Position numbers and translations under genes: made by a program. Under the pieces are notes generated by a model, which saw only the letters and a list, made by a program, of their open reading frames with translations, had not been told where the DNA came from and did no database searches. A stretch of DNA of 60,001 nucleotides from a virus (lineage: Duplodnaviria > Caudoviricetes): positions 1-60,001 of IMG/VR virus record IMGVR_UViG_3300036859_000134. The stretch is one strand, 5' to 3'. Positions 5,950 through 51,400 of the stretch are shown one piece after another (the first letter of the stretch is position 1; the number at the start of each line of letters is the position of its first letter).

Positions 5950-6317
5950 GCGGCGGCTTCTTCGAACTTCGTCTCGCTGAGGTAGAGCCGCAGCACCTCG
6001 TCGTTCGTTGACGCGTTGGGCGCGTTCTTTACGCCAGCATTGGCGGCGCGGATCAACTCCATGACGCCGGCGAGCGCCGCCTGCCCGATCCCGATGCTGG
6101 AGCGCCCCTGCTCGCGCTGCCACGCGAGCATTGCGGCCACGCTTTCGCGCGCCTCCTGCACCTTGGCAGGGTCTTCGCCGTCGAGCTCGCGCAGCGTGGC
6201 CCACAGCCACACCAGCGTAGGGGCGTGCTTGTCGCGGCCGAGCAGCACGAACAGTGGTTCGTCAGGCTGCGCGTTGGCATAGCAGTCGTAGGCTCCGGGG
6301 TCGTTCTTCGTTCCCAT
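5946..6317 (-). CDS. Conserved phage hypothetical protein
   Basis: MGTKNDPGAYDCYANAQPDEPLFVLLGRDKHAP; ATG overlaps the RT stop (TGATG). Confidence 0.75.
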   Translation of the reverse strand: MGTKNDPGAYDCYANAQPDEPLFVLLGRDKHAPTLVWLWATLRELDGEDPAKVQEARESVAAMLAWQREQGRSSIGIGQAALAGVMELIRAANAGVKNAPNASTNDEVLRLYLSETKFEEAAA

Positions 6318-7681: not shown

Positions 7682-8040
7682 GCTGCAGGCGCCCTGTTCG
7701 CTGTCTTGAGCCAGCCGCCGGCTTGCTTGCCGATGCTACCTAGAAGCTCGATGGACTCGGCCCACAGCTTGGGAGCGAGGTATCGGCTGTCATGGCTGAC
7801 GCGCAGCAGGACCGTGACGGCTCGCTGCTTGGTCAGCAGCTCCTGGATGTGGCCCGCGCGCAGGTCGCGCTGCGTGGCGTTGGCCAGGGCCATCAGATCC
7901 AGCATGTCCACGCAGTGCTGGGTGATCTTCTCGCCCAGGATGCGCTTCATGCTGCGCGGCATCTGCTCCTGCACCTTCACAGCGAGCGAGAGCAGCCGGA
8001 CGCCGGTCCTGTAGATGGGCAGATCGGTGTGCAATGCCAT
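7678..8040 (-). CDS. avd: DGR accessory variability determinant (Avd-like four-helix-bundle protein)
   Basis: 120 aa, basic, helical: HTDLPIYR...MPRSMKRILGEKI...ANA...VLLRVSHD...IGKQAGGWLK; located between target genes and TR. Confidence 0.9.
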   Translation of the reverse strand: MALHTDLPIYRTGVRLLSLAVKVQEQMPRSMKRILGEKITQHCVDMLDLMALANATQRDLRAGHIQELLTKQRAVTVLLRVSHDSRYLAPKLWAESIELLGSIGKQAGGWLKTANRAPAA

Positions 8041-8084: not shown

Positions 8085-8543
8085 TCAAGCTCTGCGGACG
8101 GCTCGGGCGCAACCTTCGTAGCTCTTGGGGTTGATGTTCTGGTTGCCGTAGCCGAAGTAGCAATGCCAGGCGTAGGCGGCGTCGCTCTCGTATTCCTGGC
8201 TTGACCAGTGCCACGCCGGTTCCAGGTGAGGCTTGCAGTTCGCGAAGAGCAGCGCTTGCTCCTGACGGTTGGGCAGCGCGCCGCCAACGCTCTCGGCCCA
8301 CGCCTTCGCGTCGTTCCAGTTGAGCTTCGAGGCCGGCGTCTCGGCCATCAACACCAGGTGGTGCCGCACGTTGCCGTCGGCATCCAGCACGGTGCCGGCG
8401 TAGTGCTCACCGGCGCGCAGTTCGATGCTCGCCTCGGGAATGGTGAGCAGCGTGATCTCTTCGGCCTGTGCTTGCAGCTTCTCGATCATTGCGGCCAGTT
8501 CGGCCTGCTTGGCCTTCACGGCCTCCATCGTGATCGCGGTCAT
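8085..8543 (-). CDS. DGR target protein 1 (DUF1566/CLec-like, N-terminal coiled coil)
   Basis: AAGGAG RBS; 152 aa; W..AK.WA...GG.LP.R.EQALLFAN...WHWSS...AW.CYF..G.Q....KSYEGCARAVRR; VR1 at 3' end. Confidence 0.9.
   Translation of the reverse strand: MTAITMEAVKAKQAELAAMIEKLQAQAEEITLLTIPEASIELRAGEHYAGTVLDADGNVRHHLVLMAETPASKLNWNDAKAWAESVGGALPNRQEQALLFANCKPHLEPAWHWSSQEYESDAAYAWHCYFGYGNQNINPKSYEGCARAVRRA
8091..8181 (-). repeat. DGR variable repeat VR1
   Basis: Versus TR: 7 substitutions at TR adenines (AAT>CAT, AAC>TAC, AAC>GGC, AAC>TAC, AAC>ATC, CAC>CCC) and 1 non-A change at the 5' edge (TCC>GCC). Confidence 0.95.
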
Positions 8544-8575
8544 GGTGCTCCTTGCGGTATGAAAGGATTGAAGGA

Positions 8576-8986
8576 TCAAGCGGCCAGGTGAATCAAGCGG
8601 ACGGCTCGGGCGCAACCTTCGTAGCTCTTGTGGCGGTAGCTCTGGGCGCCGTTGCGGAAGTGGCAAAGCCAGGCGTAGGAGGCGCCGTACTCTTCGTTGG
8701 TCCAGTGCCAGTCGGGCTCGAACTGGGCCTTGGCGTTGGCATAGAGCAGGGCCGCTACAGGGCGCGACGGCAACTGCCCGCCGACCTCGTCGGCCCATGC
8801 CATGGACTGCTGCCAGGTCATGCGCTCCTGCGCCTTGTTGGGCAGCAGGATCACGGCGGCGTGCTGGCCGGTGGGCAGCGTCGTGACGCCGGCAAAGATG
8901 CCGCCTTCGAGCTCGGCGCCAAGCGCTGGGAGAGAGGCGAACGAGAGGGTCGCGGTTGCGGTGGATTCTTGAGCGATGGCTTCCAT
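8576..8986 (-). CDS. DGR target protein 2 (DUF1566/CLec-like)
   Basis: 136 aa; GGIFAG...W..SM.WA..VGGQLPSR..AALLYAN...WHWT...YAWLCHF..G.Q...KSYEGCARAVR; VR2 at 3' end. Confidence 0.9.
   Translation of the reverse strand: MEAIAQESTATATLSFASLPALGAELEGGIFAGVTTLPTGQHAAVILLPNKAQERMTWQQSMAWADEVGGQLPSRPVAALLYANAKAQFEPDWHWTNEEYGASYAWLCHFRNGAQSYRHKSYEGCARAVRLIHLAA
8597..8685 (-). repeat. DGR variable repeat VR2
   Basis: Versus TR: 11 substitutions, all at TR adenines (AAT>CTT, AAC>CAC, AAC>CGC, AAC>GCC, AAC>AGC, AAC>TAC, AAC>CGC). Confidence 0.95.
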
Positions 8987-9077
8987 GGATTGCTTTCGTG
9001 GTGGGTGGGTTGATCAGGCGCCGCGGGCCACGCGGCCGCATGTGCCATGCGTAGCGCTCGCGGCGGCCATGCAGTCG

Positions 9078-22858: not shown

Positions 22859-23300
22859 GGTCCTCGAGCGCATCGTCACCACGCGCGAGGACGCGCACCG
22901 CGCGGCGACGCTCTGCTACCAGCATGCGCAGGCGCTGATCGCGAATGGCGTGCGCGTGCGCATCACCGCGGAAGAGCAGGAAGACGACCGCACTCTGCAG
23001 CAGAACAGGTTCTATTGGGGCCCGTGCCTGAGCGAGATCAGCGAGCAGGCCACGATCAACAGCCAGCGGTACACGATCGACGCGTGGCACGAGTTGTTCA
23101 AGCGCCAGTTCCTCGGCTACGAGGTGCTGCGCGTGCACGTCGCCGGCCGCAAGCGGCCGACCATCATCCGCCGCCTCCGCAGCACCACGAAGCTCAAGGT
23201 CAAGGCAATGAGCAAGTACCTCGACGAGGTGCAGGCGTTCGCCGCGACCGAGCTGGGCGTGCGGTTCAGCGTGCGCAATTGGCAGGAGTACACGGGGTGA
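22848..23300 (+). CDS. ninB: NinB/Orf-family recombination protein
   Basis: RTLQQN..YW...L.EIS......W.ELFK..FL...ST.KL...MS.YL.EV.AFA..ELGV.F. Confidence 0.8.
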   Translation: MSSEVLERIVTTREDAHRAATLCYQHAQALIANGVRVRITAEEQEDDRTLQQNRFYWGPCLSEISEQATINSQRYTIDAWHELFKRQFLGYEVLRVHVAGRKRPTIIRRLRSTTKLKVKAMSKYLDEVQAFAATELGVRFSVRNWQEYTG

Positions 23301-26045: not shown

Positions 26046-26981
26046 TCCCAGTCGCGCAGGAGCAGCGGCAAGCCGGCCGGCAAGGCGCCGGCGAAGAAGA
26101 CACCGAAGCGGGGTAGCTCAACGGCAGAGCAGCGGGTTCATACCCCGAAGGCAGCTGGATCGACACCAGCCCCCGCTACCACCCCCAAGCCCACCGCCAA
26201 ACGCGCCCCCGCCAAGAAGGCGGCACCCCCGAAGCCTGCGCGCAAGAAGGCGCAGCCAACCGAGCCGGCGCAGCCGTCGGCCGCAGGCACCGCCCAGCGC
26301 CTGCTCGCAGCAGAGCCGGCACCAGACCCCGAGACGGGGCTGCACCCGCGCGTGCGCGCCTTCGCCGACGAGTACCTGCGCGACTTGAACGGGACGGCCG
26401 CCTATCTGCGCGTGCACCCGGACGCCAAGGTGAGCACCGCTGCGACCGAGTCGTGCCGCATCCTCAGAAACCCCAAGGTCCGGGAATATGTCGCAGCGCG
26501 CCGCGAGCAGATGGCGTTGGCGGTCGACTTCAGCAAAGAGGACGTGATCCGCGAGCTCGTGGCGCTTGTCCGGGCGGATCCCAACGAGCTCACGCAGATG
26601 CGGCAGATCTCGTGCGACGAGTGCTGGCCGCCGGAGAAGGACGAGGGCGGGGAAAAGCGGTTGCCCATGTGGACCGAGCCGAACCCTGAGTGCCCGCACT
26701 GCAACGGCAACGGCATCCCGCGGCCGTGGTTCGCCGACACCCGCAAGCTCTCGCCGGCCGCGCGCCGGCTGTTCAGCTCGGTGCACGTCACGCGCGACGG
26801 CATGCGCATCAACCTGCGTGACCAGGATGGCGCGCTGGACAAGCTCGCGAAAGTGTTCGGCGCCTACGAGGAAGACAACAAGCAGAAGCAGGGCACACTT
26901 GCCGAGGCCCTCAGCGAGTTGTTCGGCCAGCTGCACAGCGCCGGCGGATCCCGGCTGCCGATCGCGGGGCGCGGTAAATGA
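26043..26981 (+). CDS. terS: Terminase small subunit (H1-like basic N-terminus, Zn-finger insert)
   Basis: F.DEYL.DLNGT.AY...A.TES.RIL.NPKV..Y core; CDECW...CPHCNG.G insert; directly upstream of terL. Confidence 0.88.
   Translation: MSQSRRSSGKPAGKAPAKKTPKRGSSTAEQRVHTPKAAGSTPAPATTPKPTAKRAPAKKAAPPKPARKKAQPTEPAQPSAAGTAQRLLAAEPAPDPETGLHPRVRAFADEYLRDLNGTAAYLRVHPDAKVSTAATESCRILRNPKVREYVAARREQMALAVDFSKEDVIRELVALVRADPNELTQMRQISCDECWPPEKDEGGEKRLPMWTEPNPECPHCNGNGIPRPWFADTRKLSPAARRLFSSVHVTRDGMRINLRDQDGALDKLAKVFGAYEEDNKQKQGTLAEALSELFGQLHSAGGSRLPIAGRGK
26107..26181 (+). tRNA. tRNA-Met(CAT)-like gene, initiator-like, nested in terS
   Basis: Acceptor AGCGGGG/CCCCGCT + A + CCA; D arm GCTC/GAGC; anticodon stem (G)CGGG/CCCG(A) with loop TT-CAT-AC; T arm GCTGG/CCAGC with loop ATCGACA. 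Confidence 0.8.
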
Positions 26982-28519
26982 CCGAGGTCGCGGACATCGA
27001 GTCGGTCCTGGCCACGCTGGGCCCGCAGTTCAGCGACCCGCTCTGGCGCCTCGACAACCTGTATTGGATCGTCGACAAGGACGGCCGCACGGTCAAGTTC
27101 AAGCTCAACGACGAGCAGCGCGCGTTCGTCACGAACCTGTGGACGCGCAACCTGATCCTCAAGGCGCGGCAGCTCGGGTTCAGCACGCTGATGATGGTCC
27201 TCGAGCTCGACCAGGCGCTGTTCAACGAGAACTACAACGGCGTGGTGATCGCCGACACGCTGCCCAACGCCGGCAAGCTGTTCGCCAAGATCGAGTTCGC
27301 CTACAACCACCTGCCCGATGCGGTGAAGCAGGCGCTGCCCATCACCAGCATGGCCAGCCAGTCGAGCATCCGCTTCGCGCACGGCAGCACCATCGGCGTG
27401 GGCGTCAGCGCCCGCGGCGGCACGGTGAACCTGCTGCACGTCAGTGAGCTCGGCAAGATCGCGGCCAAGTTCCCGCAGCGCTCCAAGGAGATCATCACCG
27501 GCTCCTTCGAGGCCGTGGCCACCGACAGCGTGATCGTCGTCGAGTCGACGGCCGAGGGTGCCGCCGGCGACTTCTTCGACCTGTGCATGGCCGCGTTGCG
27601 CCGCCTGAAAGAAGGCGCGCCCGAGACGCCGCTCGACTTCCGCCTGCACTTCTTCCCGTGGTTCCGCTGCCGCGACTATCGGCTGAGCGCCGAGGACGCC
27701 GCAGTCACGCCGATCAGCGTCGACGAGCACAGGTACTTCGACAAGCTGCAGGTCGAGCTCGGCATCACCATCGACGCAGGCCAGCGCGCGTGGTACGTGA
27801 AGAAGAAGGAGGTGCTCAAGCGCGAGATGAAGCGCGAGTACCCCTCGACGCCGGAGGAGGCCTTCGAGGTCGCCACCGAGGGCGCGGTGTACGGCCTCGA
27901 GATGACGTACCTGCGCGAGAAAGGCCGCGTCACCAGCGTGCAGCTCGACCCGGCGCACAAGGTCAACACCTTCTGGGACCTGGGCAAGCGCGACAAGACC
28001 GCCATCTGGCTGCACCAGTACATCGGCGTGCAGCACCGGTGGATCAAGTACTTCGAGGACAGCAACCGCGACCTGCGCTACTACTGGACGGAGCTGGAAG
28101 CGTTTCGCGTGGAACACGGCTTCATGTGGGGCAAGCACTTCCTGCCGCACGACGCCGCGACCGAGATCCTCGGCGAGTCGATCACCACGCACGAGCAGAC
28201 CCTGATCAAGCTCGGCATGCGCAACACCGTGATCGTGCCGCGAGTGTCCGACCTGTCAGTGGGCATCGACAAGACCCGCGAGGTCCTGGTGGGCAACCAC
28301 TGGTTCGACCGCATCGCGTGCGCGCAGGGCATCAAGTGCCTCGACGGCTACCAGTACCAGTGGAACGACAAGCTCGGCGTGTGGAGCAGCGATCCGCTGC
28401 ACAACTGGGCGTCGCACGGCGCTGACGCCTGGCGGCAGTTCGCGCAGGGCTGGCGCGAAGCCACCAACGACGAGTCGTTCGAGAAGTTCAAGAGGAGAGA
28501 TCGATCATGGAGACGCTGA
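26978..28519 (+). CDS. terL: Terminase large subunit
   Basis: ILKARQLGFST (Walker A), LLHVSE (Walker B), VESTAEG, WDLG..D, PHD, SHGADA nuclease motifs. Confidence 0.95.
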   Translation: MTEVADIESVLATLGPQFSDPLWRLDNLYWIVDKDGRTVKFKLNDEQRAFVTNLWTRNLILKARQLGFSTLMMVLELDQALFNENYNGVVIADTLPNAGKLFAKIEFAYNHLPDAVKQALPITSMASQSSIRFAHGSTIGVGVSARGGTVNLLHVSELGKIAAKFPQRSKEIITGSFEAVATDSVIVVESTAEGAAGDFFDLCMAALRRLKEGAPETPLDFRLHFFPWFRCRDYRLSAEDAAVTPISVDEHRYFDKLQVELGITIDAGQRAWYVKKKEVLKREMKREYPSTPEEAFEVATEGAVYGLEMTYLREKGRVTSVQLDPAHKVNTFWDLGKRDKTAIWLHQYIGVQHRWIKYFEDSNRDLRYYWTELEAFRVEHGFMWGKHFLPHDAATEILGESITTHEQTLIKLGMRNTVIVPRVSDLSVGIDKTREVLVGNHWFDRIACAQGIKCLDGYQYQWNDKLGVWSSDPLHNWASHGADAWRQFAQGWREATNDESFEKFKRRDRSWRR

Positions 28520-29062: not shown

Positions 29063-31219
29063 ATGCCCGACATCATCGTCCCCAAGCGCACCGACCAGCT
29101 GGACGCCACGGAGCGGCACGACAGGCGCATCGGATGGTTCGTGGCCGAGGCGTCGCGCCAGGCGTCCACGCGCGCCGTCATGGCGAAGTGCGAGCGCTAC
29201 TACGACAGCGAGCAGCACGACCCGCAGGAGGCGCAGGACATCCGCGAGCGCGGGCAGAACCCGGTGACGATCAACGAGATCGCCCCGTCGATCGACTGGC
29301 TGATCGGTACCGAGCGCCGGACCCGGGTGGACTTCAAGGTGCAGCCGCGCGAGTCGCTGGATCCGGACTCGACGAAGGACGCCGAGAACAAGACCAAGCT
29401 GCTGAAGTGGCTCGACGACACCAACGGCGGCGGCTTCGAGCGCAGCAACGCGTGGGACGACGCGGTGAAGGCGGGACTGGGCTGGATCGAGGTCGGCGTG
29501 CGGGGTGATCTGTCCGACGAGCCGATCTACAAGCGCTCCGAAAGCTGGCGTGCCATGCTCCACGACAGCATGGGCACGCGCAAGGACACGCGCGACTGGC
29601 GCTACACCTTCCGGCTGAAGATGGTCGACCTCGACATCGCGCTGGCCTACTTCCCGAGCAAGGAGAAGGAACTGCTCAAGGTCCGCCAGCGCGGCAACGA
29701 CCTGCAGACCTTCTCGACCTGGTGGATGGGCGCCGGCAACCTGATGGACCTGGGCCTGCTCGAGGCGGCCAGCGCGCTCGACCAGAACGCCATGCCGCTG
29801 GACCTGTTCAACCCGCGCGACCGCGTGCTGCTGGTCGAGTGCTGGAACTATGACCCGTTCACCGTGAAACAGCGGCCGAACTCGTCGCTCTACGACCGCG
29901 TGCAGCTGCGCATGCGCATGTCGATCATGACGGAGTTCGACACCCTCATCGAGGACTGGAGCCCGTACAAGCACAACCGATTCCACTTCATCCCGCTCTG
30001 GGGCTACCGCAACAAGACCACGGGCATGCCCTATAGCCCGATCAAGCGGATGCTCGACAAGCAGGACGCGGTCAACCACGCCTACACCAAGGCACTGTTC
30101 GAGATCAGCGTCAACCAGATCATCATGGAGGCCGACGCGATCGACAACGAGGCGATGACGATCGAGGAGGTGCAGGAAGAGATCTCCGACCCGGCCGGCG
30201 TCGCGGTGCTCGCCAAGGGCGCACTGACGAACAAGAAGTTCCAGACGCGCCGCGGCATCGAGAACGCGCAGGCGCAGCTGCAGCTGGCCGATCGGATGAT
30301 CACCGCCATGCAGGGCGAAAGCTCTGTCACCGGCGAGAACCGCGGCCTGGACACCAACGCCATCAGCGGCAAGGCCATCGGCCTGAAGCAGGACCAGGGC
30401 GGCGTGCTGTCGGCCGAGCTGTTCGACAACGCGCTGCTCGCCCGCAAGCAGGAAGGCGAGATCGAACTGTCGCTGGTCGAGCAGTACCTCGTGAAGCCCA
30501 TGGCGGTGCCCATCGCGGGCGAGCGCGGGCAGTACGAGATGCTCGAGCTCAACCAGATGCTCGACGACGGCACGGTGCTGAACGACATCACGGCCCGCTC
30601 GGCGCGCTTCGTTGTCGACGAGCAGCCGTGGCGCGCGACGCTCGGCCAGGCGATGTTCGAGTCGCTCATCGAACTGATGGGCAAGCTGGCACCGGTGGCG
30701 CCGCAGGTGGTGACCGCGATCCTCGACCTCGTGTTCGAGTACGCGGACATGCCGAACAAGCAGAGCATGCTGCAGCGCATCCGCGCCGTGACCGGCCAGC
30801 CGGGCCCGGACAACGAGATGACGCCCGAGCAGAAGCAGGCGCAGGACCAGGCCAACGCGGTCAAGGAAGCGCAGTTCCGGGCGCAGATGGCCAAGCTGGC
30901 GGCCGACATTCACGAGGCATCGGCGCGCGGCGACAAGCTGGACGCCGAGTCGGTAGCCAAGCGGCTGGAGGCGCTCTACATGGCCGCCCAGGGCGCCCAG
31001 GTGATCGCGATGAATCCGACGATCGCCCCGATGGTGGACGAGCTCGCCAAGTCGGCCGGCTTCCAGGACCAGAACGCGGCGCCCATCGCGCCGGAGCCCG
31101 GAGCCGTGCAGCCGGGCGCAGCCATCCCGCCGGCGCAGCAGGCCGACGGCGCACTCGTCGGTCACGAGACCGGCATTCGCACCCCAGGCGCCGACGGCGT
31201 CATCAACCCCCAGGAGTGA
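29063..31219 (+). CDS. Portal protein (P22-like)
   Basis: YYD.EQ......RGQ.P.TINEI...IDW.IGTE; G.GW.EV; SPY....F..IP.WGY; D.QD..N; A.SG.AI..KQ.QG; Q/A-rich barrel. Confidence 0.9.
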   Translation: MPDIIVPKRTDQLDATERHDRRIGWFVAEASRQASTRAVMAKCERYYDSEQHDPQEAQDIRERGQNPVTINEIAPSIDWLIGTERRTRVDFKVQPRESLDPDSTKDAENKTKLLKWLDDTNGGGFERSNAWDDAVKAGLGWIEVGVRGDLSDEPIYKRSESWRAMLHDSMGTRKDTRDWRYTFRLKMVDLDIALAYFPSKEKELLKVRQRGNDLQTFSTWWMGAGNLMDLGLLEAASALDQNAMPLDLFNPRDRVLLVECWNYDPFTVKQRPNSSLYDRVQLRMRMSIMTEFDTLIEDWSPYKHNRFHFIPLWGYRNKTTGMPYSPIKRMLDKQDAVNHAYTKALFEISVNQIIMEADAIDNEAMTIEEVQEEISDPAGVAVLAKGALTNKKFQTRRGIENAQAQLQLADRMITAMQGESSVTGENRGLDTNAISGKAIGLKQDQGGVLSAELFDNALLARKQEGEIELSLVEQYLVKPMAVPIAGERGQYEMLELNQMLDDGTVLNDITARSARFVVDEQPWRATLGQAMFESLIELMGKLAPVAPQVVTAILDLVFEYADMPNKQSMLQRIRAVTGQPGPDNEMTPEQKQAQDQANAVKEAQFRAQMAKLAADIHEASARGDKLDAESVAKRLEALYMAAQGAQVIAMNPTIAPMVDELAKSAGFQDQNAAPIAPEPGAVQPGAAIPPAQQADGALVGHETGIRTPGADGVINPQE

Positions 31220-31222
31220 TCC

Positions 31223-31696
31223 ATGGAAGAGCAGACGAACGAGCAAGGCGCCGTCGGCGACACCGAGACCAAGGCCTACGAGGACGGCACGACCGCGACC
31301 GGCCCGGGCCCGCTGCCCGACGAGTCGCCGACGATCGGGGGTGCGCACATGCTGGATCAGGCGCCCGAGGCTGTGACCATCGCGCCGTCCGATGTCGGTG
31401 ACCTTGCGCAAGTGCTTTCGGCCCAGCTGGCGCCCGACGTTTCGCAGCCACCGGCGCCGCCCCCGAGCCCCGAGGCCTTGCGGGAACTGCTGGCTGAAGC
31501 AGTGCCAGTGCCGCGGCTGCTTCGCCTCGAAGCGGCCCGCGCGCTGCCGGAAGCGGTGGAGGGCGACGATGTGCTCGGCGCGTACACGAAGCCAGATGAC
31601 GAGTGCATCGAGTCGTTCGTCGACACCGACGACCGCGTGATGCGCGTCGTCGTCACGCCGGCCGGATTGGCGAAGGTGGAGCTGCATCATGGCTAA
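31223..31696 (+). CDS. Acidic hypothetical protein
   Basis: AGGAG RBS; YEDGTTATGPGPLP motif. Confidence 0.6.
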   Translation: MEEQTNEQGAVGDTETKAYEDGTTATGPGPLPDESPTIGGAHMLDQAPEAVTIAPSDVGDLAQVLSAQLAPDVSQPPAPPPSPEALRELLAEAVPVPRLLRLEAARALPEAVEGDDVLGAYTKPDDECIESFVDTDDRVMRVVVTPAGLAKVELHHG

Positions 31697-31886
31697 GACC
31701 AAGGCAGCAAACGCCGCGATCGGCGGCCCGAGCATGGCCGACCAGCAGAAGTGGCAGGCCGAGGACGACCTGCGCACGCTGACCCGGGCCAACGAGATCC
31801 GGAAGGACGCGCCGCGCTACAAGCGCGCGCTGGCCCTCGCGCAGGAGCAACTCGCGACGATCAAGTCAGTCGCCGAGTCGAAGTAA
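31689..31886 (+). CDS. Small conserved phage protein
   Basis: WQAEDDLRTL.RA.EI.KD..R...A. Confidence 0.75.
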   Translation: MAKTKAANAAIGGPSMADQQKWQAEDDLRTLTRANEIRKDAPRYKRALALAQEQLATIKSVAESK

Positions 31887-31914
31887 ACCCACCACATCGC
31901 AGGAGCGATACCCC

Positions 31915-32985
31915 ATGGCAAAGATCATCGAAGACGCGGCGCTCAAGTTCATGACGCCAGAGGAACAGAAGATCGCGCGCGACCTGCTCGCCGCGGAAGA
32001 AGCTGGCCAGGACGCGCTGGGCGACGGCACCACGCCCGAGCCAGCTGCCGCAGCAGCCGAAGGCGAGGCCACCGATCCGCCGGCGACGGACGCGAACGCC
32101 GAGGGCGATGAGCCTGCCGGCGATGCGGCCACCGTCGAAGCTGGCGACCAGCCCGCCGACGGCGGCGATGGCCAGGCGGCAGCCGCGACCGAGGGCGAGG
32201 GCGACAAGCCGAACGCCGACGCGCTCGAAGAACTGCTGCACGGCGACGCGCCTTTCGTGCCCAAGCTCGACGGCAAGGGCCCGGAGAACTACGACCAGCA
32301 GCGCAAGGACCTGCGCGAGCAGAAGTCCGCCGCGCGCGCCACGAAGCACAAGACCGTGAGCGATGCGCGCAAGAAGTGGAGCGATGGTCTGATCGAAGAC
32401 GAGGCATTCGATGCTGCCGAGCGCGCAGCCGAGGACGCCTACGAGGCCGTCGCCGACGAGGTGGACGAGAAGCTGCAGGGCCTGCTCATCCAGCGCACGA
32501 AGGCCGAGGCGCTCAAGGAGGCCGGGCAGCAGATCGCGCAACAGTCCGAGCAGGGTTACCTGTCGAAGCTCGCCGCGCGCGCCAAGAAGGACGGCACGCT
32601 GGATTATTCCGACGCCAAGGTGGCCGGGCAGTTCGACCGCACGCTGACCGTGATCGAAGCCGATCCAGAATGGGCCGCCAAGTCCTTCGAGGAGCGCGCT
32701 GACGAAGCGCACCGCGTGGTGATGGCGCTCAACGGCAAGGTTGCTGCTGCGCCTGCGCCGGCAGCAGCGGCGCCTGCAGCCGCACCCGCGGCGCAGAAGC
32801 CCGCCGCGCGCACCACGCCGCCGGCGCCTCCCGTCACGCTGCGCGACCTGCCGGCCGCCGCGGTTGCCAACGCAGCTGGCACGGTCAAGGAGCAATGGCA
32901 GGCGCTGTCCGGTGTCGCAGCCGAGCGCTTCTTCGCGTCGCTGTCGCCGGCGAAGCAGGCCGAACTGCTCGGTGAGGCTGCCTGA
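31915..32985 (+). CDS. Probable scaffolding protein
   Basis: Acidic N-terminus, coiled coil, A/P linker, PVTL.DLPAA tail; upstream of capsid. Confidence 0.75.
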   Translation: MAKIIEDAALKFMTPEEQKIARDLLAAEEAGQDALGDGTTPEPAAAAAEGEATDPPATDANAEGDEPAGDAATVEAGDQPADGGDGQAAAATEGEGDKPNADALEELLHGDAPFVPKLDGKGPENYDQQRKDLREQKSAARATKHKTVSDARKKWSDGLIEDEAFDAAERAAEDAYEAVADEVDEKLQGLLIQRTKAEALKEAGQQIAQQSEQGYLSKLAARAKKDGTLDYSDAKVAGQFDRTLTVIEADPEWAAKSFEERADEAHRVVMALNGKVAAAPAPAAAAPAAAPAAQKPAARTTPPAPPVTLRDLPAAAVANAAGTVKEQWQALSGVAAERFFASLSPAKQAELLGEAA

Positions 32986-32987
32986 CC

Positions 32988-33185
32988 ATGGCGCAGCGCG
33001 GCGTATCGATGGACGTGCGGGTCGGCGAGGTGCTGGAGATCGTCCCGCCCGCTGGCGCCGTTGACAACCGAAAAATCACCGTGACACTCGAACACAAGGA
33101 CGGGCGCAGGGCCCGTCTCAGGATCACGGCGAGCGAGGATGTTCGCATCGAGCGCCAGGATCGACGGCTGGTAACGCAGCCGTAG
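32988..33185 (+). CDS. CsrA/RsmA-like small protein
   Basis: SMDVRVGEVLEI...ITVTLEHKDGRRARLRITASEDVRIER parallels CsrA LTRRVGETLMI...[27 protein letters not shown]. Confidence 0.6.
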   Translation: MAQRGVSMDVRVGEVLEIVPPAGAVDNRKITVTLEHKDGRRARLRITASEDVRIERQDRRLVTQP

Positions 33186-33246
33186 GTGCCCCGCAAGGGG
33201 TTGTTGGACGCGCAGGAGTGCGTCGTGTGCCCTCAACGGAGGTCTC

Positions 33247-34392
33247 ATGGCACGCACTTCTGTCCTGCCCACCGATCCGCAAACGCGGAAGGCCTGGGCC
33301 GTCAAGGTCGCCAACGACAGCATCAAGGACCAGTACTACGCCCGCCTGATCGGGCCGGAGGGTTCGCGGTCGGTCGTGATCCGCAAGACGGACCTCGAGT
33401 CCGGTGCAGGCGACGAAGTCACCACCACGCTGGTCGCCAAGCTGCGCGGCGCGCCGGTCACTGCCGGCCAGAAGCTCGAGGGCCGCGAAATGCGCCTCGA
33501 CTTCGCGACGCACAAGATGCGCATCGACGTCGTCCGCCAGGGCGTCAACGTCGGCACGAAGATGGACCAGAAGCGCGTCGACGCGAACCTGAAGCAGCAG
33601 GGTCGTGCGCGCCTGACGGACTACATCAAGGAACTGTACGAGGAGTACATCGCTGCGGCGGCCGCCGGTGCCCGTGGCGTGGGCGACGAGTTCCAGCACC
33701 TGGACACCAGCTACGCGGGCTACCCCAACGCGTTCCGCGCGCCGGACTCGGCGCACCTGTACGTCGGCACCGCCGGCGACAAGGCGAAGGCCACGCTGGC
33801 CACCACCGACAAGCTGGCGCTGTCGACGCTGAACAAGCTCAGCGTCAAGGCCCGCAAGATGCTGGGCGGCGTGCAGGACGGTAAGTCCGTGAAGATGACC
33901 AAGACGGTCATCGGCGGCAAGGAGTGCTGGGTGCTGGTGACCATGCCAGAGGGCATGCAGGACATCCGCGACGACTCCGGCACCACGGGCTGGTTCGAAG
34001 CGCAGAAGGCGCTGATCCAGAACATCGGCAAGGAAGCCGAACTGTTCAAGGGCGGCGCAGGCCTCTTCAACGGCGTGCTGGCCGACGAGTGCGAGACCGG
34101 CGTCAAGTTCAACGACTACGGCGCTGGCGGCACCACCCTTGCGATGCGCTCGCTGTTCTGCGGCGCCAACGCCATCAGCGTGGCCCACGGCACGAAGGGC
34201 ATGGCCGATGGTCTGTCGCTCGAGCTCGACGAGGACAGCGACGACCGCGGCTTCGAAGACGTGATCACGTTCCTCATGATCTTCGGCGCCGACAAGACGC
34301 AGTACAGCCCGGTCAACGGCCAGACGGCCCGCGACTACGGCGTGATCAGCGTCGACCACGCGTACACGCTGGCGCCCGGCGCCACGATGTAA
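33247..34392 (+). CDS. Major capsid protein (N4-gp56/DUF4043 type)
   Basis: K.W.......YY....G....S.V.RKTDLE..AGD.V...L...L.G.P......LEG.E..L.F....M.ID..R..V..G..M.QKR; strong RBS and codon bias. Confidence 0.9.
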   Translation: MARTSVLPTDPQTRKAWAVKVANDSIKDQYYARLIGPEGSRSVVIRKTDLESGAGDEVTTTLVAKLRGAPVTAGQKLEGREMRLDFATHKMRIDVVRQGVNVGTKMDQKRVDANLKQQGRARLTDYIKELYEEYIAAAAAGARGVGDEFQHLDTSYAGYPNAFRAPDSAHLYVGTAGDKAKATLATTDKLALSTLNKLSVKARKMLGGVQDGKSVKMTKTVIGGKECWVLVTMPEGMQDIRDDSGTTGWFEAQKALIQNIGKEAELFKGGAGLFNGVLADECETGVKFNDYGAGGTTLAMRSLFCGANAISVAHGTKGMADGLSLELDEDSDDRGFEDVITFLMIFGADKTQYSPVNGQTARDYGVISVDHAYTLAPGATM

Positions 34393-34422
34393 GGCCCACC
34401 TCTCGACTGAAAGGACGCAACC

Positions 34423-34905
34423 ATGGCCTTCTTCCAAGCCAAGCAGGTGGTCGCCAACAAGGCGCTGCCGTCGCCCATCGGCGCCGACGACACCACGACC
34501 ATCGTGGGCGAGTTCGTGGTGCCTACTGGCCTCGCCAACGGCGACATCATCGAAATGGCCGGCCTACCGGTCTACGCCATCCCCGTGGACCTCACGGTGT
34601 GCGGCGACCAGGTGGACTCGAACGGCACGCCCACCGTGTCGCTCGACTGCGGCTACCTCTCGGGCAACTACGGCGCGAATGACTCCAGCCGCACCATCGG
34701 CAACGAGTTCTTCGCGGCGGACACCAGCTTCCGCAACGCCGCCGGCGGTTTCGTGCGGTCTGCCAAGAAGAACGGCTTCATGGTCACCCCGGCCACCACC
34801 GAAAAGGGTATCGGCCTGAAGCTGGCGGCCGGCGCGGCGACCCTGGTGGTCGGCGCGAAGATCCGCCTGATGGTCGCTGTGGTGGCTGCGCCGCTGGCGA
34901 TGTAA
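34423..34905 (+). CDS. Probable capsid decoration/cement protein
   Basis: Beta-rich 160 aa after MCP; GDIIEM..LP....D.D.NG.P....D.G. Confidence 0.65.
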   Translation: MAFFQAKQVVANKALPSPIGADDTTTIVGEFVVPTGLANGDIIEMAGLPVYAIPVDLTVCGDQVDSNGTPTVSLDCGYLSGNYGANDSSRTIGNEFFAADTSFRNAAGGFVRSAKKNGFMVTPATTEKGIGLKLAAGAATLVVGAKIRLMVAVVAAPLAM

Positions 34906-36613: not shown

Positions 36614-38221
36614 ATGCGCATCGCGATCACCGGATTCAGGGGCGCGAACAAGGCACTGCACGCGAAGCTGCTGCCTGACACCGGTGTGGGCGCCGAGTCG
36701 CTCAACCAGAAGCCGGGCCGCGGCGACCTGCGGCCGTGGAACGTGCCCCTGCAGGTGGCCACCGTGCCCAACCTCGTCCAGCGCAAGACGATCTACCGCA
36801 TGGGCCGCGACGTGCCGAACGACGCCAGCTACTGGCTGTCGTGGACCACGCCGGTGCACGCGATGCGCGGCTTCAACGCGACGGACACCACCGAGAAGAC
36901 CTACTACACAGGCGACGGGCCGCCGAAGTGGACGGACAACACCAAGGCGCTGGCCAGCGCGCCGTACCCGACGGCGTGGCGGCTGCTCGGCGTGCCCGCC
37001 CCGACGACCCAGTGCGTGCTGGCGATCAACACGAACGGCACCGGCACCGACGAAACGCGGTTCTACGTGCACACTTTCGTGACGGACGAGGGCGAGGAAT
37101 CGGCGCCGAGCCCGGTGAGCGCATCGCTCACCTGCAAGCCGGGCGCGATCATCGACATCACCAACCTGCCCGATGCTCCGGCCGGCAGCTACGGCATCAA
37201 CCGCCGGCGCATCTACCGCACACAGGTCGGAAAGACATCGACCGAGTTCTACTTCCTGCGCGAGGTGGCGATTGGCGTCACCAGCACGCAGGACGACGCG
37301 CGGGCGCTGGGTGAGGTGCCGCCGACAGCTACGTGGGCGATCCCACCTGTCGACGGCCACGGCCTCATCCCGCTGTGGAACGGCATGGCATCGATGGTGT
37401 CCGGCAAGTCGATCCGCTACTGCGTGCCCAACACGCTGTACGCATGGCCGCTCGACTACGAGCTGCTCACCAACGACACCATCGTCGGCCAGGCCGCTTA
37501 CGGCCAGACGCAGGTGGTGCTGACGACCGGCTCGGCCTACACGGTGACAGGACAGGAGCCGTCGAGCATGAGCCAGATGGATCTCGACGGTGGGTTCGCG
37601 TGCGTGTCGGAAGCATCGATCGTGTCGGTCAAGCACGGCATCGTGTGGGCGTCGCCGGATGGCCTGGCCTACACCGGCACGGCCGGGCCGACCCGGCTGC
37701 TCACGTCGGGCCTGCTGATGCCGGAGGACTGGCGCGCGCTGGCGCCGACCACCATCGTCGGCTGCCAGTTCGCCGGCCTGTACTTCGGCTTCTACAACGA
37801 CGGATCGGGGCTGAAGGGCTTCATCATCGACCCGATCGACCCGCAGGGCATCTACTTCCTCTCGACGGGCTACAACGCCGCGTTCTTCGACACGATCACG
37901 AACGCGCTGTACGTGCTCGATGGCGGGAACATCAAGAAGTGGGACGCCGATACGTCGCTGATGGTGGCGTCGTTCAAGTCGAAGGTGCACCGCGCGCCGA
38001 ACCCGACGAACTTCGCGGTAGCCCAGGTGGTTGCCGACGCGTTTCCGGTGACGGTGAAGCTCTATGCAGACGGTGCGCTGAAGATCACGAAGACCGTGGC
38101 CGATGGTTCCCCATGGAACCTGCCCAAGGACTTCCTCGCCGACGACTGGCAGGTCGAGGTCAGCTGCGCCGGCGCGGTGCAGGGCGTGATGCTCGGCGAG
38201 ACGGTGGATGACCTCGAATGA
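36614..38221 (+). CDS. Tail nozzle / tubular B-like (stabilisation) protein
   Basis: Beta-rich 535 aa; YV.TFV...GEESAPSP, RIYRT, YAWP..Y, CVS..SIV, WASPDGL; podovirus position. Confidence 0.75.
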   Translation: MRIAITGFRGANKALHAKLLPDTGVGAESLNQKPGRGDLRPWNVPLQVATVPNLVQRKTIYRMGRDVPNDASYWLSWTTPVHAMRGFNATDTTEKTYYTGDGPPKWTDNTKALASAPYPTAWRLLGVPAPTTQCVLAINTNGTGTDETRFYVHTFVTDEGEESAPSPVSASLTCKPGAIIDITNLPDAPAGSYGINRRRIYRTQVGKTSTEFYFLREVAIGVTSTQDDARALGEVPPTATWAIPPVDGHGLIPLWNGMASMVSGKSIRYCVPNTLYAWPLDYELLTNDTIVGQAAYGQTQVVLTTGSAYTVTGQEPSSMSQMDLDGGFACVSEASIVSVKHGIVWASPDGLAYTGTAGPTRLLTSGLLMPEDWRALAPTTIVGCQFAGLYFGFYNDGSGLKGFIIDPIDPQGIYFLSTGYNAAFFDTITNALYVLDGGNIKKWDADTSLMVASFKSKVHRAPNPTNFAVAQVVADAFPVTVKLYADGALKITKTVADGSPWNLPKDFLADDWQVEVSCAGAVQGVMLGETVDDLE

Positions 38222-48400: not shown

Positions 48401-51400
48401 ACCGAGGCGCGAGACAACATGCTGAAGGCCATCGGCATGCACAGCCGCGACACCGCGGAAGTGCAGAAGGCCAAGCAGCTGCTGTTCTCCGTCTACAAGG
48501 GCCGCAGCGAGCCGTTCCAGGTCTTCTACGACGAGGAGCGGCGCGCCGACAAGATGGTGCGCGACGGCTTCCCGGGCAAGGTCGAGCCGTGGACGCGTCG
48601 CTTCGTGCTGCGCGACGCCGGCGGCGCCGGTACCACGGACGCGGGCGTCGGCATTTACCGGGAGGCCTCCGAGAAGCTCGGCACGCCGCTGGCCGACGAG
48701 CAGATCAAGGCGGGGTTCTTTCAGGTGCGGTCGAAGGCCGGGCAGACAGTTGCCATGCTGCCGACCAAGGCCGATGCCGAGGTGGCTGCGAAGCGCCTGT
48801 ACGAGGCCACGCTGGCGAAGGAATCGACCGAGGAGCCCGAGCGGCCGCACCTCGACAAGCTGTCTCGCGAGGGTCTGCCGAAGAGCGTCGATCGCGACGT
48901 GACGGCCGATGACTTCCTCAAGCACTTCGGCTTCCGCGGCGTGGAGTTCGGCAACTGGTCGGCGCAGGACGAGCGGCAGAAGCTGCTCAACCTCTCATAC
49001 GACGGCTTGACCGACCTCGCCTCGATCCTGAACGTGCCGCCCAAGGCGCTGAGCCTGAACGGCACGCTGGGCATGGCGTTCGGTGCGCGCGGCGGCGGCC
49101 GCTTCGCCGCGCACTACGAGCCGGGCAAGCTCGTCATCAACATGACGAAGATCCGCGGCGGCGGGTCGCTGGCGCACGAATGGGCGCATGCGCTCGATCA
49201 CTACCTGGGCGAGCTCGCCAAGGACGACGCCTACAAGACCAGCGCGCGCGGTGCGTCGGGCTGGATGCAGCGCATGGTCTACGACCGCGGGCAGCAGAAG
49301 AAGCTCGCCTACGAGCCAGGCACGCGCAAGATGATCAGCGTCGCGACACCGCGCCTGACGAACCTGCGCACCGAGTTGGCCGAGTCCATCGACAACGTCA
49401 TGCAGACGATGTTCGGCGCAGACAGGCAGCCGACCAGCTATGCCCGCGAGGCGCAGAAGCTGTCGGGCAAGTCCGAGGACGGGTACTGGATCCGGCCGAC
49501 GGAGATGTGGGCCAGGGCCTTCGAGTCCTACGTGTTCGATCGCCTGCTGGCGATGGGCGCGAAGTCCGAATACCTGGTGCACGGCGTCGAGCCCGATCGC
49601 TTCGCTGCAGCCGACCGGTACAAGGGCAACCCGTACCCCGTGGGCGCGGAGCGTGCGGAGATCAACAAGGCGTTCGACAGGTTCGTCGGCGAGCTCAAGT
49701 CGCGCGACACCGACAACGGCGTGGCGCTGTACAGCCGCGGTGCCGGCCGAGGCCTGTCCGCCGACGCCGTCGAGAAGCACATCCGCCCGATCGTCGACTC
49801 GTGGGCCAACGGTCCGAAGGGCGGCGTGGAGGTCGTGAAGAAGGCCGGCGAGCTGCCGGCCAACGTGCTGAAGGCGGTGAAGGCTGCCAATGCCGACGGC
49901 GTGGCCAAAGCGTTCTTCGTGCCCGGCACCGAGAAGGTCTACCTGATCGCCAGCAACCTCGAGTCCACGGCCGACGCCGAGTTCGCGCTGTTCCATGAGG
50001 TCTACGGGCACTACGGCATGCGGTCGATCCTCGGCGACGACTATGCCCAGGCGATGACGCGGCTGCGCCGGCAGAACCAGAACCTCGCGATGCAGGCCTC
50101 GATGTGGATGTCGCGCTACGGCGCCGACGAGGTCAAGGCGCGCGTCAAGTCGGGCATGGACAAGCTCGCCGCCGAGCGCGAGGTGCGCCTGCTGTCGACC
50201 GAGGAGGCGCTGGCCGATGCCGCGGCCGCGGTGCCGGAGTTGAAGGGCTGGAAGTACGTCGCTGCGCGCGTGCAGGCCTTCCTGCGCAAGATCGGCCTGC
50301 ACTCCATCGCCGACTGGATGGAGACGCGCACCGAGGCCGAGACGCTGCAGTTCCTCGTGCGCGCGCGCCGCGGGGTCCAGGGCGGCATGGCTGGGCTGCC
50401 CACCGGCGAGCAGGCGCTGTTCTCGCGCGACGACGAGCGCCATGCGCTGCAGGCGCTGTCGCAGAACGATGACCTGTTCGCGCTGCCGAAGTCCGACAAG
50501 ACGACGGTGGAGGGAATCGCCGCGGACGTGGACCCCGAGATCAAAGTCAAGAAGCGCTCGAACATCCCGGGCGAGACGCGCTACGACCTGACCATGCCGG
50601 ACGGCAAGACAGCGCGCCTGATGGTGCGCGAGCCGAACCCCTACGGGCAGAGCACGTACGGCTTCGACTACGTCGACGGCGAGATGTCCAGCGTCTACAA
50701 CGAGCGGCCCGGCGAGAACCCCGAGGACGTGCCGCCCAAGGGCGATGTTTGGATCGACGTGTCGCTGCTGGAGAGCGGCGGAGGCGGCACGCAGGTTTAC
50801 GCCATCGCTGCCAACTACGCGCACAACACGGACCGCATCTTCATCGGGGATCCTGCCGGACTGTCCGACGAGGCGATGATGCGCCGGCCGGAGCAAATGC
50901 TGTCCAGTGCGCTGAAGTTCGGCACGACAGAGCACCTCGCGCCGCACCCGCGACAGGTGGCAGGCGATGAGAAGCTGGGCGTGCCGCCGCTGCGCTGGGT
51001 CTACGGTGACGACCCGGGCAACATCCGCAGGCTCGTTGACCTCAACCTGAAGACGCTTGAGAATGCAGGCCTTTCCGACGCAATCACTTTCGACCCCACC
51101 AGTGGACAGTTCCTCGACTCAGAAGGCCAACCCATCGACAGAGCGGGCATCGACGCTGTCGCCGTGGAGGCGCGTCTCGGCGAGCGAGCGCGCGCAGGCG
51201 GCCGAACGCTTGCGCGCAGCGCTGTCCTGCGTGCCCTTCTACGCGAGGAAGGCGGCGGAGCACAAGGAGCGGACCGGGGACGAGATGGGCTACTGGCTCG
51301 ACTTGCAAGGCTCGGAGATGACACTCCGGAGGCCACCCGTCGCCTCTTCTACAGCCGCGGTACCGGATACCTCGACACCCTGAGGTCGGCGGGCACGGCC

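Follow-up and report, generated by a model that had tools for sequence, protein, structure and literature searches.

Why does the head operon of a soil phage carry a gene for a small CsrA-like protein between its scaffold-like and major capsid genes, and what is the role of the GGA-bearing hairpins in the leaders of these two genes? The question is raised by the IMG/VR virus record IMGVR_UViG_3300036859_000134 (60,001 bases, 89% complete by estimate), which was analysed over this whole length, hereafter called the window, and which has a head-assembly module on its plus strand (Table 1). A first-pass annotation, made from the letters alone, had pointed to a 65-residue open reading frame (ORF), a hairpin with an AGGA loop in each of the two leaders, a CCCC-GCAA-GGGG hairpin and the capsid Shine-Dalgarno (SD) sequence, and on reading the sequence all of these were located where it had placed them. 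The ORF product was found to belong to the CsrA family, the capsid-leader hairpin (P1) to be conserved and to covary in related phages, and the capsid leader to be capable of folding either into P1 or into a helix that buries the capsid start. Our preferred reading, to which we give slightly less than an even chance, is that a dimer of the CsrA-like protein locks P1 and keeps the capsid start open, that is, activation by anti-sequestration.

Relatives were reached via the capsid protein and not via the 65-residue protein. The sample comprised 13 IMG/VR loci, 80 more (the best 80 of 521 relatives, some of which repeat contigs among the 13) and 28 loci from bacterial genomes or metagenome-assembled genomes (MAGs). 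The capsid protein matched 67 phage records at about 35% identity, including Ralstonia Gervaisevirus, Burkholderia Lessievirus (Bcep22, JC1, CSP3) and others.

The CsrA-family protein and its place in the head operon

The product of the 65-residue ORF belongs to the CsrA family, and a CsrA-like fold and dimer are predicted for it by modelling. The likeness to CsrA proposed in the first-pass annotation was borne out alike by PHROG 8397, by profile comparison with the PDB, by Foldseek and by the dimer model. PHROG 8397 ('CsrA-like regulator') matched residues 6-58 with E=4.1e-9 (37.3 bits). A profile built on 53 relatives (A3) was compared with every PDB sequence and gave a list of 16 rows at E<=1, the top 11 of which were CsrA, RsmA, RsmE, RsmF or RsmN (2jpp RsmE, 1.4e-8; 2bti, 1.6e-7; 1y00 CsrA, 1.6e-7; also 5z38, 1vpz, 7yr6, 5dmb and RsmF/RsmN), with the alignment covering beta1-beta5. 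The predicted fold was compared with solved structures using an AlphaFold (AF2) model, which had a predicted local distance difference test (pLDDT) value of 84.7. CsrA/RsmA/RsmE chains made up 12 of the 13 best matches listed by Foldseek against the PDB, the top ten having TMq values of 0.53-0.60, and the E-values (at least 0.16) were weak, as is to be expected of a query with 65 residues.

The homodimer model scored 0.47, compared to 0.00 for the best of three controls, with at least 86% of the contacts common to the runs and a partner pLDDT of at least 67. The predicted dimer is interdigitated, beta1 pairing with beta4' and beta5 with beta2'. The mark set for the dimer score is reached by 20 of 30 solved homodimers and by 1 of 23 single chains, and given that CsrA dimers have already been solved, the pass may reflect mere likeness to known structures. 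The key RNA-binding arginine of E. coli CsrA, R44 (PMC7652899), aligns with R56 of the window protein, a position occupied by R in 29 and by K in 16 of the 53 relatives (R or K in 45/53). At the basic residue after beta1, R11, the relatives have R 27 times and K 16 times. Since residues 5-10 form the predicted beta1, the ATG at 32988 is favoured as the start of the gene.

Single-sequence searches gave no match for tblastn of the 65-residue protein against phages or for blastn of the region against phages, and a word-indexed search of 5.8 billion proteins with the same protein returned the window's own protein only. With the family profile, 1.84 billion representatives were searched, and relatives numbered 1747 at E<=0.001 and 263 at E<=1e-10. 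One protein of 3295 residues (P0049) contains seven separate stretches that match the CsrA-like profile (E=1.5e-14) and may be a giant protein of repeated CsrA-like modules or a low-complexity artefact.

A hidden Markov model of the CsrA-like protein found a match at 91 of 111 loci, in nearly every case immediately upstream of the capsid gene, and divergent copies were found by inspection at L105 and L110. A gene annotated as 'CsrA-like regulator' occupies this position in Bcep22 and in Ralstonia phage Claudette. The position in the head operon is constant over capsid identities from 100% to 33%, and this fixed place is unlike that of a moron. In the window's clade the protein has an insertion of 8-10 residues between beta1 and beta2. 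At one locus (L022, capsid identity 67%) an unrelated 82-residue ORF without Pfam match (2739-2987) and a spacer of about 400 nt replace both the gene and P1.

HNH endonuclease genes (PF13392, E=4e-17) were observed between the CsrA-like gene and the capsid gene at L034 (1411-1968), L046, L024 and L035. The insertion site is downstream of P1 in the IMG/VR loci, and in Claudette it is upstream of P1 with the HNH gene on the opposite strand (L002, 4322-4807, minus strand). The spot between the two genes appears to be a homing endonuclease hot spot.

P1 and its association with the gene

Folded alone, P1 has a free energy of -11.8 kcal/mol (z = -2.79), and 2 of 200 shuffled sequences folded as well. 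That P1 is more than a chance hairpin is decided by its conservation and covariation in related phages. The block GCGC-AGGA-GUGC was found 20-45 nt before the capsid ATG in almost all gene-bearing loci, down to 33% capsid identity. In an alignment of 70 unique homologous hairpins (A2), 91.4% of the cells of the 7-bp helix were paired as compared to 76.8% after shuffling, and the covariation score of 0.403 (0.139 shuffled) was reached by none of 500 shuffles and lay far over every slid control. The inner three pairs are partly fixed by the pattern used for collection, and it is the outer four, which were free, that carry the covariation. Pair 11-23 was GC in 51 sequences, AU in 8, UA in 8 and GU in 3, and was never unpaired.

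At pair 13-21 a G.U was kept in 66/70 sequences. On the other strand this would be a C.A mismatch, which indicates that P1 works as sense-strand RNA, and from this comparison P1 is a conserved, covarying element of that strand. The idea that P1 instead acts as DNA, as a late promoter or operator, could draw on the fact that a conserved block immediately precedes a late gene with high expression, but it has to contend with the G.U and the covarying outer pairs, with the presence of a single strong copy in the 60-kb genome and with the fact that P1 in distant clades is downstream of a promoter-like site. The related idea of an intrinsic terminator or RNase III site is faced with the lack of a U-tract after P1 and with a stem of 7 bp, RNase III needing a longer stem. 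We consider this whole group of explanations highly improbable.

A covariance model of P1 from 70 relatives (R1) was run on both strands of the 60 kb with filters off, and the capsid leader was the only strong match (34.3 bits, E=7e-7). The second match (6964-7003, plus strand, 20.4 bits) is antisense inside the reverse-transcriptase gene and was treated as chance. R1 also found hairpins outside its seed at L034/L046, L035 and L024, where they directly follow the CsrA-like stop codon and the HNH gene then precedes the capsid gene. An Rfam search gave no gathering-threshold match in the capsid or scaffold leaders and nothing relevant at E<=10 in 31700-33400. Several relatives have weaker R1 matches (13.5-20 bits) at a constant distance, about 1.67 kb, downstream of where the capsid gene starts (L056 5187-5225, L055 2810-2848, L063 2302-2340, L064 5153-5191 and L124 5164-5203), and these may represent another copy of the hairpin, ahead of a later head gene.

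The GC-rich hairpin that precedes P1 (Table 1) is terminator-like or a 3' stabiliser. A simple terminator scan did not call it, its stem having fewer than five GC-type pairs. By a direct hairpin scan, rather than from minimum free energy (MFE) folds, a GC-rich hairpin was found to end shortly before P1 in 34/39 unique spacers of the window's clade, 23 of them with at least three T in the next 8 nt, and in 6/19 spacers of distant clades, none with a T-rich tail. A promoter-like site precedes P1 in Bcep22-like clades, and under a strict sigma-70 rule such a site was found before P1 in only 6/28 distant-clade and 2/45 window-clade leaders, so that a location of P1 at the 5' end of the mRNA is no more than a suggestion.

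The first-pass annotation had linked the hairpins to the gene. We counted the two in 47 clusters formed at 80% capsid identity, with at least 700 nt of upstream sequence required. Both were present in 31 clusters and neither in 11, four had the gene without an R1 match and one had an R1 match without an adjacent gene. In the four gene-only clusters (L080/81, L095, L106 and L110) variant hairpins were visible on inspection. The hairpin was not equally kept where the gene was missing: none of the nine no-gene clusters (L022, L076/L083, L115 and L118-L123) had P1 at the capsid leader at E<=1. Among these, the complete record of L083 and the record of L022, which is only 22% complete, contained neither gene nor P1, and neither was found in the 3.5 kb examined for the deep branches L115 and L118-L123.

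At three loci (L075, L093 and L094) a P1-type hairpin is present at the capsid gene without an adjacent CsrA-like gene; that of L093 scores with R1 and the other two were recognised by pattern. In all three records the CsrA-like gene was found elsewhere, right after the scaffold-like gene, about 4 kb (L094) or about 33 kb (L075, L093) from the capsid gene. This arrangement implies that hairpin and capsid gene move together, as do regulator and scaffold gene, and that both hairpin and regulator are retained.

The first-pass annotation had suggested that the gene and its targets form a self-contained circuit. Five host genomes with related prophages were available (a complete Rhizobacter genome, an Undibacterium isolate, and Rhizobacter and Roseateles MAGs). 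PF02599 gave two matches in total in these genomes, both of them on prophage CsrA-like genes, and no other csrA was found in any of the five, which fits a self-contained circuit. Burkholderia hosts of csrA-bearing phages have likewise been reported to lack a chromosomal csrA (PMC7366521). The other suggestion of the first-pass annotation, interference with host Csr/Rsm control, is unlikely as the main function in hosts without a Csr system of their own. An effector that mimics or perturbs the Csr/Rsm network of the host, or its CRISPR control, with the hairpins being incidental, would be in line with the proposal that phage CsrA/RsmA homologues exploit host Rsm control (PMC8450108) and with the detection of one CsrA peptide in JC1 virions (PMC9144972). 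Given the hosts described above and a P1 that is conserved with covariation and specific to the gene, we regard such an effector as very unlikely.

The alternative fold and the sign of the proposed regulation

The capsid leader is bistable, forming either P1 or a long-range helix that buries the start, and the two are mutually exclusive. The 5' strand of this helix consists of the last 2 nt of the P1 5' arm, the loop, the 3' arm and a following GUG, and its partner strand of CAUG plus capsid codons 2-6. The 85-nt leader of the window folded to -38.9 kcal/mol with the alternative helix (z = -2.11) and to -33.3 kcal/mol with P1 forced (margin 5.6), and the corresponding values for Bcep22 were -31.6 and -17.8 kcal/mol (margin 13.8). 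The alternative fold was the MFE structure in all six leaders tested. The window duplex has a free energy of -21.7 kcal/mol and pairs positions -2 to +17, and 39/43 unique leaders of the window's clade reached -12 kcal/mol or better with the first codons included.

In distant clades the P1 loop and 3' arm are complementary to the spacer between the SD and the AUG. Such complementary pairs are GGAUGUGC/GCACAUCC in Bcep22, GGAGUGUG/CACACUCC in Claudette, GGAAGUGC/GCACUUCC at L089 and AGUAGUGC/GCACUACU at L099. The native duplexes of these clades reached -12 kcal/mol or better in 19/27 cases and beat 95% of non-native pairings in 15/27. In an ungapped test anchored on GUGC/GCAC, 87 flanking pairs were counted as compared to 67.8 +/- 6.5 after permutation (p=0.001, n=12). 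Where the loop is AGUA and lacks GGA, a complementary CACUAC/U is found before the AUG. For the 44 members of the window's clade, 69.8% of the cells of the alternative helix were paired versus 12-54% in slid controls.

Two sequence features agree with the second fold: in it, a U-A pair takes the place of P1's conserved G.U, and capsid codons 2, 4 and 5 (GCA, ACT, TCT) are rare A/T-ending codons, a class that makes up 7.3% of the gene. In addition, the translation initiation region (TIR) was less accessible than with shuffled upstream sequence in 54/69 leaders (0.38 vs 0.46, Wilcoxon p=3e-6). A different helix, suggested by short-context folding between the post-P1 segment GUGUGCC and codons 1-3, was rejected, because differences in the Ala codon are not matched by compensatory changes and P1 is all that RNAalifold returned.

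These observations are compatible with the following scheme. The head operon encodes its own CsrA-family RNA-binding protein and would also contain the cis targets of that protein, P1 being the main one. In the alternative fold the P1 loop and 3' arm would be paired with the capsid start codon and first codons, or with the SD-AUG spacer in distant clades, so that the start is buried. The GGA loop would be exposed only when P1 is formed, and a CsrA-like dimer bound to it would lock P1 and allow capsid translation. Because the GGA loop exists only in the P1 fold and P1 frees the start, binding of the loop would be thermodynamically coupled to an open start. The P1 core CAGGA(N)G in a loop resembles both the CsrB repeat CAGGA(U/A/C)G and the site obtained by SELEX (PMC7652899).

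Several points weigh against this scheme. Pfam CsrA (PF02599) matched the window protein with 14.7 bits and E=0.031 (13.8 bits in a six-frame search), below the cut-off of 27, and it was matched at E<=0.01 by only 20 of the 53 relatives (best 3.4e-8; no other Pfam family matched). Nineteen of the 70 unique P1 loops are without GGA (AUGA, AGUA, AAGA and variants) and would thus not be bound by a canonical CsrA; by eye, no clear link was seen between these loops and particular residues of the protein. In the loci with HNH insertions (L034/L046, L024 and L035) P1 is about 550 nt from the capsid SD, showing that a close spacing of P1 and start is not indispensable. The covariation score of the alternative helix in the window's clade was 0.098 against 0.094 shuffled, with almost no compensatory change as both strands are conserved, and RNAalifold returned P1 but not the helix. 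Rare A/T-ending codons are common at the 5' ends of genes for other reasons, and in some close relatives (e.g. L049, L027, L053 and L020) TIR accessibility was above that of the shuffles. The joint loss of the adjacent gene and P1 at L022 could have been a single deletion. Finally, the distance between the GGA of the loop (33215-33217) and that of the SD (33238-33240), 23 nt, fits classical dual-site repression equally well, and both the binding of P1 by the protein and the sign of its effect are, like everything beyond homology, what we infer.

Classical repression is the main rival. A CsrA dimer would bind the P1 loop, as the high-affinity site, with one face and the GGA of the capsid SD with the other, keeping the ribosome out, and would likewise block the scaffold SD hairpin, throttling both genes and setting their ratio, much as the first-pass annotation had it. 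CsrA dimers bind GGA in hairpin loops and bridge sites 10-63 nt apart with an optimum above 18 nt, and CsrA usually represses by covering the SD, most of its known targets being repressed (PMC7652899). The window has this target-site pattern, with a GGA in a hairpin loop and a second one at the SD within that range, 64 unique leaders show spacings of 20-37 nt, and the scaffold SD is in a hairpin loop. However, the most stable fold of the leader already buries the start, so that a repressor would add little and opening would still be needed. A GGA at -18 to -4 is missing in 7/71 unique leaders, to which the loops without GGA must be added, and in the HNH loci P1 is too far from the SD to be bridged. 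Moreover, as the major capsid protein is the most abundant protein of the virion, its dedicated repression is harder to rationalise. The GGA/SD arrangement that led the first-pass annotation to repression therefore stands as an observation, but given that the 3' half of P1 is also complementary to the capsid start, activation by anti-sequestration is at least as likely; we judge classical repression to be possible, though on the unlikely side.

The loops without GGA and the possibility that adjacent gene and hairpin were lost in one event would also be expected if P1 and the alternative helix formed a switch that is independent of the CsrA-like protein, for example a timer based on co-transcriptional folding or a 5' stabiliser of the mRNA. 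The protein would then target other GGA-containing mRNAs of phage or host, and its co-occurrence with P1 would be merely ancestral. The loop and the start region covary (as with AGUA), so that RNA-RNA pairing could by itself account for part of the loop conservation, and in distant clades P1 follows a promoter-like site and would sit at the 5' end of the mRNA. The published view of the gene as a 'moron' (PMC9144972, PMC10269572) points the same way. Yet in 51/70 loops the GGA is retained, in a loop context that agrees with known CsrA sites, three records have kept both gene and hairpin at a distance of about 4 to 33 kb, P1 is missing from all nine no-gene clusters, and the place of the gene is fixed in a manner not expected of a moron. 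On balance we consider a switch without the protein quite unlikely.

The scaffold-leader hairpin was examined in the same way. Alone it folded to -5.5 kcal/mol (z = -2.58, with 3/200 shuffles folding as well), and in a 60-nt context the scaffold leader was not unusually structured (z = +0.93). With R1 it ranked 11th (11.4 bits, E=0.52). Of 53 unique scaffold leaders, 17 have a hairpin at the SD with a stem of 4 bp or more and GGA in the loop, and almost all of these belong to clades whose capsid identity to the window is 46% or higher. The core CGC-AGGA-G(U/C)G is flanked by outer pairs that vary by clade (AU..AU, AG..CU, CA..UG, CU..AG, CG..CG, UU..AA); at L021/L049 the hairpin is sufficiently P1-like to be found by R1 with 23.4 bits. 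The scaffold hairpin is thus real and a feature of the window's clade rather than of the whole lineage, and the earlier claim that both hairpins are real and conserved holds for P1, which is nearly universal in the lineage, while for the scaffold hairpin conservation is restricted to the leaders just counted.

In the activation scheme, binding at the scaffold hairpin of the window's clade would block the ribosome and damp scaffold synthesis, and owing to the 2-nt gap between the scaffold-like gene and the CsrA-like ORF such damping would also lower synthesis of the CsrA-like protein itself. One may extend this to a 'scaffold-first' timer, in which scaffold and CsrA-like protein are made first, and the accumulating protein then shuts off scaffold and its own synthesis, locks P1 and turns capsid on, the pair having co-evolved in Csr-less hosts with some clades moving off GGA (AGUA and AUGA loops). 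We regard this extension as rather unlikely.

AGGA-tetraloop hairpins of at least 5 bp number seven on the plus strand of the window, compared to 1.5 +/- 1.3 in 100 dinucleotide shuffles (maximum 6), and none on the minus strand. Five further ones (1244-1257, 22883-22896, 33129-33146, 37719-37734 and 49471-49484, plus strand) are inside ORFs and without the CGC...GUG core; they may serve as additional binding sites or result from the coding sequence. The one at 33129-33146, inside the CsrA-like ORF, was rejected as an element and treated as chance, its position not being conserved (12/56 unique ORFs, scattered).

The head module and comparison with known systems

The window is a contig of a Bcep22-like type phage with a P22-like portal and a PF13252 capsid protein, and the features discussed are collected in Table 1. 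The 'scaffold' label is inferred from position and composition. A Pfam search of the scaffold-like protein matched no family, and the gene is syntenic with the portal-to-capsid gene of relatives, with identities of 24-40% (tblastn).

Table 1. Positions of the head-module genes and leader elements in the window.
Feature	Position	Strand	Remarks
Large terminase gene	26978-28519	+	head module
P22-like portal gene	29063-31219	+	PF16510, E=2e-118
Two small ORFs	between portal and scaffold-like gene	+	
Scaffold hairpin ATCGC-AGGA-GCGAT	31896-31909	+	SD AGGAG (31901-31905) in loop, ~9 nt before ATG 31915
Scaffold-like gene	31915-32985	+	ORF, 356 aa, acidic, Ala/Pro-rich; ATG at 31915
CsrA-family gene	32988-33185	+	65 aa; starts 2 nt past scaffold stop
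GC-rich hairpin (G)CCCC-GCAA-GGGG(U), then UGUU	33188-33201 (CCCC-GCAA-GGGG 33189-33200)	+	directly after CsrA-like stop
P1 hairpin GACGCGC-AGGA-GUGCGUC	33207-33224	+	7 bp; candidate binding site of CsrA-like protein
Long-range helix	33212-33227 with 33246-33263	+	encloses SD in small CCUC/GAGG hairpin
Capsid SD	ACGGAGG 33236-33242, GGAGG 33238-33242	+	capsid ATG 33247
Major capsid gene	33247-34392	+	381 aa; PF13252 Phage_capsid_3 E=4.5e-51; PHROG 334 major head protein E=1e-70

A simple promoter and terminator scan of the plus strand from 31500 to 34600 called nothing. A soil metatranscriptome contig of 199 nt (run X6) covers 33155-33353 with 7 mismatches, that is, the 3' end and stop of the CsrA-like gene, P1 and the capsid start, and gives a weak hint that a close relative is expressed with RNA reading from the CsrA-like gene into the capsid gene. 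The DNA runs X2-X4 contained only fragments or relatives of the window, and parts that they do not cover carry no information. Elsewhere in the window a tRNA gene (26107-26178, plus strand, Rfam tRNA, 57.4 bits) is located just upstream of the large terminase gene. A reverse-transcriptase gene (6317-7681, minus strand, PF00078 E=5e-13) with an Rfam RT-15 RNA at its 5' end (7503-7694, 162 bits) is close to an ORF (8085-9041, minus strand) with a weak Lcl_C-type C-terminal domain (26.5 bits, under the cut-off), and the segment 6317-9041 looks like a retroelement cassette, possibly a diversity-generating one.

The gene itself is known, through PHROGs, RefSeq annotation and its description in print as a 'moron'. 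A full-text literature search, from which most subscription journals and supplements were out of reach, brought up no account of an element in the capsid leader or of a CsrA target within the phage, and both the cis element and the circuit seem not to have been described. The usual view of CsrA is that of a global bacterial regulator, and phage copies have been taken for accessory 'morons'. The present copy has the look of a portable regulator dedicated to the major capsid gene and equipped with a cis RNA of its own, in hosts devoid of CsrA. Taken together, the data suggest a CsrA-type regulator and cis RNA that are embedded in and dedicated to a phage head operon, with a bistable leader that favours activation over repression. 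If true, this would be a compact, orthogonal protein-RNA translational switch, would explain the timing or balance of head proteins in widespread podophages of Burkholderia, Ralstonia and soil Burkholderiales, and would provide a natural series of co-varying protein/loop pairs for studies of CsrA specificity.

Among known systems, the protein resembles CsrA/RsmA/RsmE (PF02599) in being a small beta-strand protein of about 65 residues with an RsmE/CsrA profile match, a predicted interdigitated dimer and the equivalent of R44 kept. It differs in that it forms a divergent subfamily under the Pfam cut-off, has the beta1-beta2 insertion of the window's clade, and is encoded by a phage inside a head operon, in hosts without csrA and with no sponge small RNA known. 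The leader is like glgC-type CsrA targets, with a GGA in a short hairpin loop and an SD GGA 23 nt away (PMC7652899), and unlike usual CsrA sites in its loop of 4-5 nt instead of the usual 6 and in the quarter of loops without GGA. The gene has been listed before among phage CsrA homologues (PMC7366521, PMC8450108), and the 'CsrA moron' of Bcep22-like phages has been discussed for JC1 (PMC9144972) and CSP3 (PMC10269572). Bcep22 gp54, JC1 gp47, CSP3 orf23 and the copies in DC1 and GP4 are of the same family and are upstream of the major capsid gene. In the parts of those papers that treat it, the gene is a host-derived accessory one without a cis element, whereas here it appears as a conserved part of the head module with a linked hairpin. 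Post-transcriptional control of scaffold synthesis in a phage with a P22-like portal would be shared with the translational autoregulation of scaffolding in P22 (bioRxiv 10.1101/2022.12.13.520362); there the scaffold protein itself is implicated, and here the agent would be a separate CsrA-like protein acting on a hairpin with the SD in its loop.

For activation there are precedents within and outside the CsrA family. In flhDC, CsrA binds close to the mRNA's 5' end and protects and stabilises this mRNA, and in E. coli ymdA a hairpin sequesters the SD and is opened by CsrA binding, leading to activation (PMC7652899). As with ymdA, the capsid leader hides its start in the stable fold and presents the GGA loop only when in the open fold. 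It is unlike ymdA in that CsrA there melts the inhibitory hairpin directly, while here the protein would stabilise the competing hairpin P1. The Com protein of phage Mu, a small protein, binds a short hairpin just upstream of a translation-inhibition structure and thereby exposes the start signals of the late gene mom (PMC6483171), which is the same logic as that of the anti-sequestration model proposed here, although Com is a zinc-finger protein unrelated to CsrA and its target is a DNA-modification gene and not a capsid gene.

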